Below, in pieces: positions 29,890-50,276 of a stretch of 64,000 nucleotides of DNA. The notes under the pieces were generated by a model that saw only the letters and a list, made by a program, of their open reading frames with translations, was not told the origin of the DNA and made no database searches. How positions within the stretch are numbered: the first letter of the stretch is position 1; each line of letters begins with the position of its first letter. Origin of the DNA: Fimicolochytrium jonesii (Eukaryota); NCBI RefSeq assembly GCF_025526975.1, contig NW_026515683.1, positions 1-64,000 of the forward strand, in the 5' to 3' direction. The translations under genes were made by a program, and so were the position numbers.

Positions 29890-30594
29890 TGCAAGGGTTT
29901 CTTCAGTTTTCAACATTCAGTTTCAGTAGGACACTTCCGTTTCATTTGACTAATTCCGCTGACCGGCGTACTTGTTTAGACCTAGTAAATTCCCCCTAGT
30001 ATTAGAATTATTGTAGAGCTTTCCATCGTATAATCCTCAATATCATGCACAGTATTCATGTTTCGATCTGCTTTGCGGCGATTCTGCGTGCTCGAAGGTC
30101 AAACGGTCTCGACGGTAACTGTACCGTGTACGCTTTGGACGACTACATATACAATGCAGACTGCTACATGTACATAGTAGGTACAATGAAATGCGCGTGA
30201 GCGCGATGTGTGTGAGTCACACTGCGTTACTATAAGCGTTACTGGTCTTGCGTTACTGGCCTTCACAGTACACGCTTCCCATAGTACACCACATATGATC
30301 CCATATGAATGGACGCGTCAATGCGCGCAATTTAACAGAGAATTCGATTTTGATGATAACACTTAACAATTGATTAGGGCAATCGATTTTTCATTTTTTA
30401 AGGCAACAGATTAGCCTCATGATTAGCTTCCACACACTCCCCCAATTAAAGGATGTTATATATAAGACAGCCTGCAGACGCTCCCCCTCACGTTTCCCCT
30501 ATGCTTTCCACAGCACTTCTACGCCATCTTCAACACATCACACACACATCACACCGTCTCTCTTCTCTCCTTTGCAACGCCACGCACTGTAAGT

Positions 30595-30665
30595 AAGCTG
30601 AGGATTATTGTGTTTTTGAACCAGAAGGGCTGGAAAGCGTCGAAAAACGGCGTTATTCCCAGCTT
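30595..30665. repeat. 71-bp quasi-palindromic site 1 (5' UTR intron of cargo gene 1)
   Basis: AAGCTGAGG...TTTTTGAACC...CGTCGAAAAA...TCCCAGCTT. Confidence 0.9.
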
Positions 30666-30754
30666 GTCAGAGTTTTGACAGCTTGACTGACGTGACTGAC
30701 GTTTGTTCAAAAGTTTAGGTATACCAACACACCCTGCCCTCATCATAAGTGAGT

Positions 30755-31661
30755 ATGGCTTCTTCTTCTTCGGCAACGGGACGGGGACCCAACGACAACG
30801 GGGAGGGGGATATGGGGATGGCCATGTACAACCTGTCAGAAATGCACTGGCAGATGGGGCAGGAGGAGACGGAGACGACGATCGCCGTCTTCCGTTACCT
30901 CTGGAACCTCTATGACCCAGTGATTGTTACCCGCATGGTCGATGGCCACCAGGTCGAGTTTTACTGGTGGTCACTCAACCAATCGAGGCACATCAGGACG
31001 CTGCAGAGGCGTGCCCGCTCGGCGGCGGCCTTCCGCCTCTGTTGAGTGGATTCAGAGGCGCGCATCTACCACGAGGGGAAGCAGGTCAACGGGGTGATGC
31101 TGAGGAAGGATTGGGTCAGGGGTACGTATCTTCTCGACAAGCGGAGGATTAATGCGTTTTTCGACGTCCCCGGCGTGCGCGCGTTGAAAAATCGCATAAA
31201 CCTCAGCTTGTCTTTGTTTTGTTGCTGCGTTGAAGGGCAATAACAATAACCGTGTTCTTCTCTCAGATTGCTTGAGGATCCACCCATTGGACGCAGAGAG
31301 GCTGAGGGATTGGATGTTGCCAGCATGGGACGACACCGCACTATGGCCCCTTGGCCATCTCTGCAAAGGGGCCTCCGTTGCACACAGCATCCATCAGACA
31401 TGGGATGCTCCCGTCTTTCCGCCACCGCCAATCGGCCCAACCGCAACCGCCGCAGCCACCGCCCCCTCCCCAGGCGACTACCTCCAGCCATGGTTGTCCT
31501 TCCAGGACACGGTTGTTGAGGGAATGCGTAGCCCTTCGTCCGAGGTTATCAATGAGGCTGAGGACATCTTCGAAAATACGGAGCAGATGAAGGAATGGCC
31601 GAAGCAAATGGCCGAATACTATAGCTGGAAGAAAACCAAGGATGCTGAAGCCGATGAATAA
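30755..31661 (+). pseudogene. Cargo gene 1: unknown ~253-codon protein with one in-frame TGA (31043-31045)
   Basis: Exons 30755-31121 and 31267-31661 join in phase 1 (GT-AG intron 31122-31266). Probable 5' UTR intron 30589-30718; TATA near 30458. Confidence 0.6.
31139..31209. repeat. 71-bp site 2 (cargo gene 1 intron)
   Basis: AAGCGGAGG...TTTTTCGACG...CGTTGAAAAA...CCTCAGCTT. Confidence 0.92.
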
Positions 31662-31739
31662 TATGTTCCATATCATGCCATTTTTGAATATATTCTGATC
31701 TTTGGCCTCTTCTTTCCTTTTCTCAATTAACATCAGAAT

Positions 31740-47300: not shown

Positions 47301-49127
47301 TGACGGCGTCATCGAGAATTTCCGTAATGCGTGACCCAGCATCAACCTGATTGGCTGAACCTTGTTGTTGATTAGGTTGGCGACTGCGCTGCAGAGTTTG
47401 AGCGCCACGACCGCGCTGTCGAAAACCACCGCGTCGGTTCTGGGTTTGCGAGCCTTGCTGTCGAGTTTCGGGATTTGACCAGCATTCAACTCTCCAATGT
47501 CCCATTTTGTTACAAAAAGGACAAGGAGTCGTTGGACGTTGACAAGGAACGTGAGTAGTTTGCCATTGTCCACGTCAATGAAAGGGCTGTTGACGTTGGT
47601 AGGGAACTGGACCTGAAGTGAGACGACTCACTCCAGGGGGATAGTATGACGTACCAAGGGCATTGAGCCCAAAGGTCATATCATCTAAGTCTTGCTCAAA
47701 TTCCGTAATTCGAGGATTGGTGTAAGGGGCGAATCGTCCGCCACGACCACCGCCACGACTACCTCAACCGCGGCTGGCTCCACGGCCGCCACAAGCACTC
47801 GATGCCGAGGCAATCGGACGAGGCGTATTGGCTTGGTTGCCGTCAGTGACCCCGTGAGCCACATGAGCACGACGAGCTGCAGTGATAGCTTGATCGAGAG
47901 TGATAGGGGTGTTGATATTGGTAGTGCCCGAGAATTCGAAGTTCGTAACGGCTTCAGCGAGATAATGACCGATTACCGTATTCTTGAGAAGACCGGCCTT
48001 GAAGTATCGAATCTAATCGATAAGGGGAATGGTGCCTTGAGTGTTATCGAGACGATGAGCGGCTTTGAGCTCATTATTGGTGTCTTGCAACTCCTTGATA
48101 TATTTTTCAAGAGAGTCACCAAGCTTGAGACCGGAGAGCTTGAGCTCAATAGTATTACGCAAGTTGCGAGGATAGAAGTGAGCGACAAGAGCCGTTTCGA
48201 AAGCTGCCCAATTTGCGGGAGGTCCAGCAGCGTAAGTCGTATTGTACCACTCGAGAGCAGTACCCTTGAGGTAGGTAGTGAGTGTAGGGGCATACTCTGC
48301 CATAGTAAAGGGTATGGCATTGGCAGCTCCAGTCCCGTGTGATCCAGCCTGTACAGCCGGGACAATAAGAGAGTCGAGAAAGTTGTGGTGAGACGTAACA
48401 AACTCTTTGATCTTTTTGGCAGCTTTGGCGCCATCGTATTCGACAAGCTTGTTCTTGCGAGCGTCCATAAGAAGTCTGAAACGTTCGGCTCGTTGGGTTT
48501 CTTGAGTAAAAGCACGCTCCCGATTAGCGAAAGCAGCTGCGACAGCCGCAATGATAGCTTGAGTCTATCCGTCCATTCTTGCTTGTGGACGAGTGTAAGG
48601 GCGACGTCCGGTAGAGGGGTGACGTTGACGAGGAATGTCTTGGTGATGCTAGCGGTAGGTGGTGCTACCATGTAACGTCAGAGGAAACGTAGACGATATT
48701 GGGCCTTTCTGAGAGGGCTGAGAGCAGTGGCTTGTAGTGAAGAAAAAAGTAAGAAGCTCTTTGCAGCGGCCGCTCGACTGACGGCTTTATATATGGGCTG
48801 CCAGTGGGGCTTGCGTGGCTTCATTGAGGCTTGGCGCCTTATGTAATGTATTACCGAGAGCTCGGGTGGCCAGCCCGGGTCTCGGATCAAGGAGAAGTAA
48901 AGAGATATAATATGAAATACAAGTGAAGATGAGATATCCCCGACACCCCATGCTGGCATGGGTCCCTCATTACCGTTCAACGGCAGAAAGGCGAAACGGG
49001 AGAGTTGTAAACCGCGCATGATTTGGTTTCGCTGAAGGGTGGCGTGTTGGATCAAAAAGGACATGTAGTTCCGGAGCCCGGACTCTGGACTTTGCTGCAA
49101 AATAGGAATCCTGAATTAGAAGAGGCC

Positions 49128-49198
49128 AAGCTGAGGTTTATGCGGTTTTTCGACGCGCGCACGCCAGAGACGTCGAAAAATGCACTAATCCTCAGCTT
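49128..49198. repeat. 71-bp site 8 (recombinase intron 1)
   Basis: AAGCTGAGG...TTTTTCGACG...CGTCGAAAAA...CCTCAGCTT. Confidence 0.92.
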
Positions 49199-49838
49199 CC
49201 CAACGATCAACCATTCACGCACCTGCGTCCACCAATGCTTTGCTAGATTCAACCTGTCCTTGTTGTCGTAAGAATCACCCGTACTCCCGATCCCTCAATC
49301 TTTCAAAGCTTTATAATCGTTGTTATACTGATCCCTACTCTGAGTTTTCAGCATCTCCTTTATTGTGGTCGTTCGAGGATAATTGGGTTTGATGTTCTCG
49401 CCCAATGCTTGCTGGGAATGGGTCAAGTCCGTCACGGCCTTGACGTACTGGTCCAACGTAGCCCGTGACATGGGCTTTGGAGGATCGTAGGGCTGTCCTC
49501 TATTGTTCAATGCCCCCCGGGGCTTGACATATTCGTTGAGCCACAGAAGAACTTTGCCTGGCGTGAGCTTTTGCGAGCGCCTGTTGGTGTTGCACCATGC
49601 CAGATACGACCTTGCACGGTGGCCATATGTGTTGTTAGTCTCAACCGGCCTTGCTCGTTGGTTCTTTTTCATTTGTTTAATGGTGCACTGGTGAACTTCC
49701 GCATCCTGCACGTCTTCCAAGTCCTCCACTATGCTATCGTCGTCCCTTGGGGCGTCACCATCGTCCAGACCAGCTGCAGCGGCGGCCTCTGTGGTTGCTG
49801 TAGGGGTCGCAGCCATGTCGTTGCTGTCCAGTGTGTCC

Positions 49839-49909
49839 AAGCTGAGAATTATGCCAATTTTCAACGTTGCCTTGGACTTCTCGCCTGAAAACGCAGTAAC
49901 CCTCAGCTG
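49839..49909. repeat. 71-bp site 9 (5' UTR of recombinase)
   Basis: AAGCTGAGA...TTTTCAACG...CTGAAAA...CCTCAGCTG. Confidence 0.88.
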
Positions 49910-50276
49910 TACGAACGAATGCCGTCACCCGGCCTATGGTCACACGCATAACTAATCATTTCCATTGTACCCATGTATGGCAGAAATGCCCCATTGAGGG
50001 CATTTCCGTTTTCTATTAGTGCCGTACATAGTCATTTCCCAAGATACATAGGGGGGTCACGTGACTCGCGTTACTGGTCTAGTTCTCAGTAACGTGAACG
50101 CGTTACTGGCGTCACTGACCCGATAGGTACATACATACAGTACAGTACGTCACCAGTTTTCGTCAACGCGTCGGACTGCGCGTTGTGCCCAACCTCGAAG
50201 TTGAAACTCATGTCTTTTGTCCTCGAGATCGATGTTGCAGCTTTACAGAGCAAACTGTACCACTGTAGGACGCAAA

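Follow-up and report, generated by a model that had tools for sequence, protein, structure and literature searches.

The 64,000-bp stretch analysed here (positions 1 to 64,000 of Fimicolochytrium jonesii contig NW_026515683.1, hereafter the window) comes from a compact fungal genome and contains a CryptonF transposon that encodes a predicted histone H3-like protein (H3L) beside its tyrosine recombinase (YR) and carries nine palindromic sites of 71 bp, all in non-coding positions. The reading preferred here, with a probability of about 45%, is that the sites served the element's own histone as landing pads, probably as a measure against silencing. A more specific proposal is held more tentatively: that the element encodes a private chromatin, composed of its own H3 variant and of natural palindromic sites resembling the Widom 601 sequence, which lie in introns and are read by this variant only. 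The initial annotation had suggested that the element may assemble chromatin of its own at the sites, and this suggestion has gained support from a histone-like phasing of the sites and a predicted pairing of H3L with H4.

The element lies in a block of approximately 20 kb between a START-domain gene (ending at 29889) and Exo84, of which 13.7 kb consists of Gypsy inserts (Table 1). Excision of these inserts at the target-site duplications (TSDs) GGCAG and CCCCA leaves a unit of 6,246 bp for 30178–50131, in agreement with the size of about 6.2 kb first reported. An 8-bp terminal repeat, TAGGTACA, is found at 30178 and 50124, and a 6-bp TACATA repeat at 30171–30176 and 50128–50133 overlaps it at the right end. 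TACATA is the likelier true terminus, because CryptonF elements have 6-bp repeats and the end cores match those of metagenomic CryptonF elements. The CATAG core of the left end is also present at the left end of a metagenomic CryptonF of 9.6 kb, whose ends are fixed by independent insertions; this element is found on three contigs with different flanks, starts with (C/T)ATAG and ends with GATACATAC in the two contigs that reach its end. The TACATAC core of the right end also occurs at the right end in contigs L008 and L009. The GCGTTACTGG motif is exact at 30236, 30250, 50068 and 50100, two copies per end, and has no other exact match in the window. The shared end motifs described earlier are therefore present, with TACATA added, and the left subterminal GCGTTACT(GG) motifs are likely recombinase-binding sites.

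CryptonF elements were described by Kojima & Jurka 2011 (PMC3212892) as encoding a YR with a GCR1_C domain, having short terminal direct repeats and no terminal inverted repeats (TIRs), and being kin to Ndc10 and Gcr1; this and the other papers cited are drawn on in the portions available. The present element has short terminal direct repeats (6 bp for TACATA or 8 bp for TAGGTACA, compared to 4–6 bp in CryptonF), no TIRs and no reverse transcriptase (RT) of its own, and its YR domain (NDC10_II) and C-terminal GCR1_C domain are in one protein, making it a CryptonF by every sequence feature assessed. Some CryptonF elements carry extra genes (C48 peptidase), whereas no histone cargo or internal repeated sites are described in the available text of that paper and chytrids are absent from its host table. 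Pfam searches confirm a layout of an unknown gene (+), an H3-fold gene (+) and a recombinase-GCR1_C gene (-). The reading as a Crypton that carries an H3-like gene and is bounded by short direct repeats at its termini is supported.

The recombinase was identified by Pfam matches to NDC10_II (E 6.3e-19 and 5e-09) and GCR1_C (E 1.9e-12). Its frame was joined across three GT-AG introns and the Gypsy B insertion site, and the joined protein aligns continuously with intron-free homologs. The catalytic R..K..HxxR..W..Y residues are retained, with LQRN, HGKT, THLTR, GGWN and LGYD aligning with the homologs. A profile of the recombinase and seven relatives has Ndc10 as its sole protein data bank (PDB) match (E 3e-07). 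None of the five longer and two near-length protein matches, all 29–36% identical, is from the same species, and viral contigs gave no match. The recombinase would excise the element at its short terminal repeats via a circle, which is the route proposed for Cryptons (PMC3212892).

The H3L gene has 321 codons with no stop after removal of Gypsy A, and its product matches the Pfam Histone family (E 1.8e-12). The fold domain exhibits 37% identity to canonical H3 and 38% identity to a named fungal CenH3. CenH3 (CENP-A) proteins are recognised by the loss of H3 residues Q68, F84 and T107 and by a longer loop 1. H3L has the changes Q68R, F84W and T107S and contains 25 residues between I74 and R83 (loop 1), compared to 8 in H3. 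These four diagnostics are also seen in 44 of the 136 aligned rows, mostly unlabelled divergent H3s, and are therefore non-specific. H3L has lost R49, R63, R69 and R72 (R49A, R63L, R69K, R72E), together with T45E, and retains R83, H113, R116 and T118. It also differs at seven positions in the H3–H3 interface region (C110Q, A111Q, I112W, L126M, A127V, R129Y, I130F). Helix 3 is followed by a predicted C-terminal extension of approximately 140 residues, about 80 basic and then about 60 acidic, in place of the short C-terminal tail that serves CENP-C in CenH3. Exon 3 has no Pfam match, and its best Atlas score is 0.79. Removal of the second H3L intron, like that of the three recombinase introns, restores continuous alignment with homologs, including H3 helix 3.

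An alignment-based fold model of H3L has a predicted local distance difference test (pLDDT) score of 86.4 and a lengthened helix 1, and its best structure matches are H3 and CENP-A chains alike. When H3L was modelled with a stand-in H4, the pairing score was 0.69, compared to 0.02 for the best control; this mark is reached by 51 of 78 solved pairs and 2 of 108 mismatched pairs. The H3L–H4 runs exhibit a contact agreement of at least 79% and a partner pLDDT of at least 65. H3L is thus predicted to pair with H4 in the sense of likeness to a known pair rather than of binding, since this is a textbook pair and the H4 is a stand-in.

A database protein assigned to Fimicolochytrium jonesii has a histone exon that agrees with the window sequence without a single difference. 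A second H3L copy was found on another contig (72 kb) of the same species, with 93% identity (7 differences in 106 residues). H3L therefore occurs in at least two copies, one of them within a transposon, where CenH3 is a single-copy host gene. Trees were built with FastTree on 136 rows and with IQ-TREE on 48 of these, after removal of matches longer than 300 aa and of seven tandem or misassembled rows. H3L sits on a very long branch, of 1.67 substitutions, and neither tree gives it a supported placement. Its sister is a divergent H3 from the related chytrid Powellomyces hirtus, P0131 (TPX56686), in a weak grouping (FastTree 0.24, then 0.874 with P0145; SH-aLRT 33 and UFBoot 82). P0131 and P0088 tie at 11 shared changes. 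The P0131 protein shares FR, RW, DALQ and ALF with H3L and is possibly another element-borne histone. No longer relatives of H3L (215–2000 aa) were present among 1,031 candidates, and viral contigs gave no match. H3L is not classed as a CenH3, because two defining features, the single copy and the short tail, fail and the phylogeny is silent; the designation "CenH3-like" in the initial annotation holds for the single residues Q68R, F84W and T107S and is not borne out by the trees.

Gene 1 is an orphan with no Pfam match (best Atlas score 0.75), and its single-sequence fold model (pLDDT 36.8) is unusable and yields no fold assignment. The gene 1 stop codon and the H3L start are separated by 78 bp ending in a pyrimidine tract and CAG. 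A GTGAGT donor adjoins the gene 1 ATG and an acceptor lies 4 bp before the H3L ATG (predicted, 30749–31740), so that an alternatively spliced H3L intron may contain gene 1. With this strong donor and the tract and CAG before H3L, one promoter may give both products by alternative splicing.

The nine sites in non-coding positions that were reported earlier are confirmed. All nine are gap-free palindromes of 71 bp without a single indel, at pairwise identities of 38–64 of 71 positions. The pattern derived from them has nine matches in the window, all within the element, and none in 100 shuffles; a weight matrix scores the nine at 49–83 bits, with the next window position at -1.0. Outside the element the window (57.7 kb, with its host genes) contains no site, and none was found in the metagenome and viral contigs searched. 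All lie outside predicted coding exons, six in introns of coding regions and three in untranslated regions (UTRs). The coding-region introns that hold a site are 94–152 nt long and the lone site-free intron is 54 nt (predicted). Within the introns the sites are at variable offsets, 2–49 nt from the donor and 10–57 nt from the acceptor. Similarity among the sites ends at 71 bp and the flanks are unrelated. TSDs are absent at five of the nine sites and of 2–4 bp, inconsistently, at the others. Two pairs are identical at 64 of 71 positions, so the unit has been copied or converted within the element. The outer 9 bp hold 1.35–2 bits per position and form a near-invariant AAGCTGAGG block. After Gypsy excision the spacing is 444–987 bp, which is evener than random (coefficient of variation 0.28, p 0.002); the array is regular in this sense and not as a multiple of the nucleosome repeat, which was tried for the spacing and rejected (p 0.81).

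Phasing was measured from the palindrome axis over the 18 half-sites. Each half-site has A/T (W) blocks at -35/-34, -26 to -23 and -17 to -13, with G/C (S) stretches between them and at the centre, and the information is near zero beyond ±36. A free fit over periods of 6–16 gives a period of 9.8 bp with a phase of 0.3, so that G/C coincides with the axis and with whole turns, and A/T with half turns. Out to ±73, the flanks are without periodicity (r -0.12, compared to 0.47 in the sites). For periods of 10.0 and 10.3, each of the nine sites reaches at least the 97th percentile of the window. Chance levels are p 0.005–0.02 by column permutation, p 0.009–0.05 by run shuffle, and 2–5 of 35 circular shifts. 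This phasing matches the geometry of DNA on an (H3–H4)2 tetramer whose dyad coincides with the axis, which is suggestive and not proof. In the Widom 601 sequence, the strong histone contacts fall within the central 71 bp, via the H3–H4 tetramer (PMC12412783). The most stringent positioning signal is TTTAA, an A/T run, at superhelical location (SHL) ±1.5, followed by SHL ±2.5 (PMC3401446). The sites resemble 601 and sequences from in vitro selection (SELEX), compared by published SHL positions, in having the signal within the central 71–73 bp and A/T near SHL ±1.5, ±2.5 and ±3.5 with G/C between. They differ in that 601 is artificial, was selected with canonical histones and has TA steps including SHL ±0.5, whereas the sites have T-runs plus a near-invariant outer block of 9 bp.

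In the arrangement proposed, an (H3L–H4)2 tetramer or a loosely wrapped nucleosome would sit with its dyad on each palindrome axis, every 0.45–1 kb. H3 R49 contacts outer nucleosomal DNA, and R63 and R83 contact SHL 1.5 and 2.5. With the grip of R49, R63, R69 and R72 lost (also T45E), deposition of H3L would depend on pre-bent sites. Base-specific recognition of the outer AAGCTGAGG block would fall to the long loop 1, the C-terminal extension, the gene 1 product or GCR1_C. Chromatin formed in this way would prevent the genes and ends of the element from being packed into silent host chromatin, a role comparable to that of VANC in VANDAL elements, and sites hidden in introns can cover coding regions, as VANC motifs do. 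Anti-silencing is more probably the role than centromere function.

Several points weigh against a histone bound to these sites. The phasing test is post hoc, the idea having arisen after inspection of the profile, and the nine sites, being homologous, amount to a single observation. Only 30% of the variance is accounted for by the cosine fit, the sites drop to the 93rd percentile at a period of 10.5, and at 10.4 they are equalled by 5 of 35 circular shifts. The outer W blocks lie about 1–2 bp inside the half-integer turns of 10.3 bp, and the sites lack TA at SHL ±0.5, their signal being a T-run and not TTTAA. A similar pattern would be expected from any protein dimer that binds one face of the helix, and the near-constancy of the AAGCTGAGG block argues for base-specific reading rather than bending alone. 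The spacing fits no nucleosome-repeat multiple, as given above. The intron positions are predictions, and in the public gene model P0156 the histone gene is spliced in another way. The element with its sites was read from one copy only. Finally, neither the histone (tblastn) nor the site (weight matrix) was found in any of 20 metagenomic CryptonF loci, which total 95.5 kb and include five of at least 8 kb, three of these from one family; histone and sites are therefore not a trait of the family.

The strongest competitor, though unlikely, is free of histones: the gene 1 product or a GCR1_C dimer would bind the sites base-specifically and H3L would be a separate passenger. The information in the outer 9 bp fits such a protein, gene 1 is an orphan comparable in status to VANC, and the motifs to which VANC21 binds are located in introns and elsewhere in the non-coding sequence of its own element (PMC5735166). 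A histone as passenger also has a parallel, since the H3L genes of hAT elements stand beside a central unknown open reading frame (ORF) and no sites are mentioned in the available text (PMC3538342). VANC motifs are tandem and 8–9 bp long rather than a fixed 71-bp dyad, a half-site of 27–35 bp with helical A/T periodicity would be long for one small DNA-binding domain, and the GCGTTACTGG end motifs are the likelier sites of the recombinase. The resemblance of the present element to VANDAL/VANC, an element-encoded protein with targets in non-coding parts of the same element (PMC5735166), is an analogy: VANDAL is a MuDR element, VANC is not a histone, and its function has been demonstrated. Improbable is a functionless origin of the sites as remnants of an intron-seeding or MITE-like (miniature inverted-repeat transposable element) repeat of the Introner type that spread within the element. 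Their terminal inverted repeats, the two near-identical pairs with unrelated flanks, and arms resembling splice signals (GT-AAGC; CTAAT..CAG) speak for it, as do the existence of Introners with TIRs and no TSD (PMC9860276) and of symmetrical proliferating fungal introns (PMC8469720). The absence of copies from the rest of the window argues against it, as do the position of the sites inside introns at variable offsets, without consistent TSDs or end-to-end intron similarity, the lack of indels at such low identity, and the even spacing.

The initial annotation also offered a centromere-like aid to the segregation of excised circles. H3L would then act as a CenH3 on the sites, with the Ndc10-like recombinase as its loader, and the circles would be partitioned like the 2-micron plasmid. 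This reading has turned out weak and is improbable. In its favour are the match of the recombinase profile to Ndc10 only, the residues Q68R, F84W and T107S with the long loop 1, the loss of R49 as in CENP-A, and the 2-micron STB locus, which recruits Cse4 and is a proposed ancestor of point centromeres (PMC3627588). Those diagnostics are shared by about a third of the aligned rows, H3L does not group with named CenH3 proteins, and its extension replaces the short tail read by CENP-C (PMC7475651). If an integrated element had nine scattered kinetochore sites, chromosomes would be at risk of becoming dicentric. The element has no evident gene for replication or partition, and kinship with Ndc10 is common to all CryptonF (PMC3212892). 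The budding-yeast point centromere (CBF3/Ndc10–Cse4) and the 2-micron STB likewise combine a YR-fold protein, an H3 variant and a defined site (PMC3627588), but they have one site per replicon and use the host Cse4, whereas the present element has nine dispersed and mostly intronic sites, a histone of its own that is not placed with CenH3, and a recombinase with the full catalytic set. Very improbable, finally, are single-stranded hairpins, either splicing-aiding RNA or recombination sites of the attC/shufflon type. Eight of the nine sites fold better than shuffles (z -2.1 to -5.5). The RNA hairpin was rejected on base-pair covariation, since 489 of 500 shuffles pair as well as the real sites and three positions per arm almost never pair; together with the lack of any Rfam match, this makes a duplex DNA site likelier. 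Recombinase sites are described as having arms of 11–13 bp and a spacer of 6–8 bp (PMC3212892), and site-to-site recombination would cut the recombinase gene itself.

Histone cargo on DNA transposons is already known from hAT elements of Pyrenophora tritici-repentis (PMC3538342) and Mycosphaerellaceae (PMC6710886). These resemble the present element in being DNA transposons of about 6 kb in which a transposase gene and an unknown ORF at the centre accompany an H3L that fits neither the H3 nor the CenH3 group. They differ in having a DDE transposase and TIRs rather than a recombinase, with no cognate DNA sites mentioned in the portions available, and the present H3L differs from theirs by a loop insertion of 17 residues and the long C-terminal extension. 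The literature searched, which lacked most subscription papers and Repbase entries, yielded no description of a histone-bearing Crypton or of cognate sites for a histone encoded by a transposon, and a listing of the literature under the species name held nothing on transposons.

The 9.6-kb metagenomic CryptonF is present at three insertion sites (L008 5954–15540, L009 1185–10779 and L011). It encodes several cargo ORFs without Pfam matches, one of 444–493 aa, and towards its right end it contains a block made of repeated units (L008 ~14790–15240). In L011, a near-perfect palindrome of 63 bp with T8/A8 tracts (5069–5131) directly follows the recombinase gene and is itself followed by an Hsp70 fragment; its sequence is unrelated to the 71-bp sites.

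The present copy is dead, because it has two nonsense codons and two insertions. The nonsense codons are TGA at 31043 in gene 1 and TGA at 49295–49297 (codon 174) in the recombinase, both as expected from CGA-to-TGA deamination. The observed/expected CpG ratio is 0.90 in the element and 1.03–1.06 in the host flanks. Together these are a weak hint of 5-methylcytosine; for Chytridiomycota only low N6-methyladenine is described in the sources available. Both Gypsy elements encode RT, RNase H, integrase and chromo domains (chromo E 1e-18 for A and 0.00076 for B), and three chromodomain-type Gypsy insertions lie in or within the 6-kb element. Chromodomain integrases favour silent chromatin, and such landings would fit host silencing of the present copy.

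Table 1. Features of the CryptonF element and its insertions (window coordinates; exons and introns are predicted)
Feature	Position	Strand	Description
CryptonF element	30171–50133	.	6,255 bp minus two Gypsy inserts; TACATA ends
Alternative ends	30178–50131		bounded by TAGGTACA repeats; 6,246 bp without Gypsy inserts
Left terminus	30171–30185	+	TACATA(G) 6-bp repeat, then TAGGTACA 8-bp repeat
Left subterminal motifs	30224–30259	+	GCGTTACT(GG), n=3
TATATAA	30459–30465	+	predicted promoter common to gene 1 and H3L
Site 1	30595–30665		in predicted 5' UTR intron 30589–30718 (well predicted)
Gene 1	30755–31661	+	exons 30755–31121, 31267–31661; 253 codons; TGA at 31043 (codon 97)
Site 2	31139–31209		gene 1 intron 31122–31266; inverted relative to site 8, 64/71 identical
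H3L gene	31740–38890	+	exons 31740–31880, 31975–32337, 32490–32816, 32871–32968+38854–38890
Site 3	31894–31964		H3L intron 31881–31974; most diverged
Site 4	32377–32447		H3L intron 32338–32489
Gypsy A	32969–38848	-	531-bp long terminal repeats (LTRs), 3 differences; TSD GGCAG; later insertion, outside original element
Site 5	38899–38969		H3L 3' UTR, intron 38897–38999 weakly predicted; 64/71 identical to site 6
Recombinase (NDC10_II + GCR1_C)	39147–49816	-	four exons, 808 codons; exon 2 split by Gypsy B
Site 6	39886–39956		recombinase intron 39839–39986
Site 7	40861–40931		recombinase intron 40837–40980
Gypsy B	41128–48945	-	275-bp LTRs, 13 differences; TSD CCCCA; later insertion
Solo LTR of Gypsy A	43778–44371		inside Gypsy B; TSD CTAGT
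Site 8	49128–49198		recombinase intron 49095–49222
Site 9	49839–49909		recombinase 5' UTR, intron 49824–49912 weakly predicted
Right subterminal motifs	50068–50109	+	GCGTTACTGG, 2 direct, 1 partial inverted at 50087
Right terminus	50124–50134	+	TAGGTACA overlapping TACATA(C)

Further features lie in the window to the left of the element. The region 4816–11958 holds the remains of nested Copia elements (RVT_2) and an ankyrin-repeat ORF with periodic repeats of 87 bp. A Tc1/mariner element at 14184–16004 has 32-bp TIRs and contains a frame for a DDE_3 transposase. The region 16098–18903 contains a Cys-rich ORF (16375–17673) with one internal stop and no Pfam match, flanked by duplicated blocks of 93 and 61 nt, and a MITE-like inverted repeat of 129 bp is found at 18360–18488. 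The Gypsy element at 19406–25264 is a very recent insertion on the evidence of its 136-nt end repeats, which are identical, and of its gag and pol frames, which are long and open. The host gene or genes immediately to the left of the element (25669–29889) encode three START domains.

Transposon-borne H3 genes have been known since 2013 and, to our knowledge, have had no known target or function. The histone encoded here is accompanied by candidate cis-acting sites, whose length and phasing pose a precise question, namely whether the histone chooses these 71 bp. If H3L does choose them, DNA sequence would direct the targeting of a histone variant, which would be a new form of chromatin control by mobile DNA and possibly a tool for placing nucleosomes. 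The private chromatin, if true, would constitute a sequence-specific histone–DNA pair made by a transposon of the Ndc10 family and a living model for the selfish coupling of an H3 variant to a defined DNA site, a step that point centromeres needed. Even without a role in segregation, the Ndc10-related carrier makes a selfish origin of point centromeres testable in a lineage outside the yeasts.

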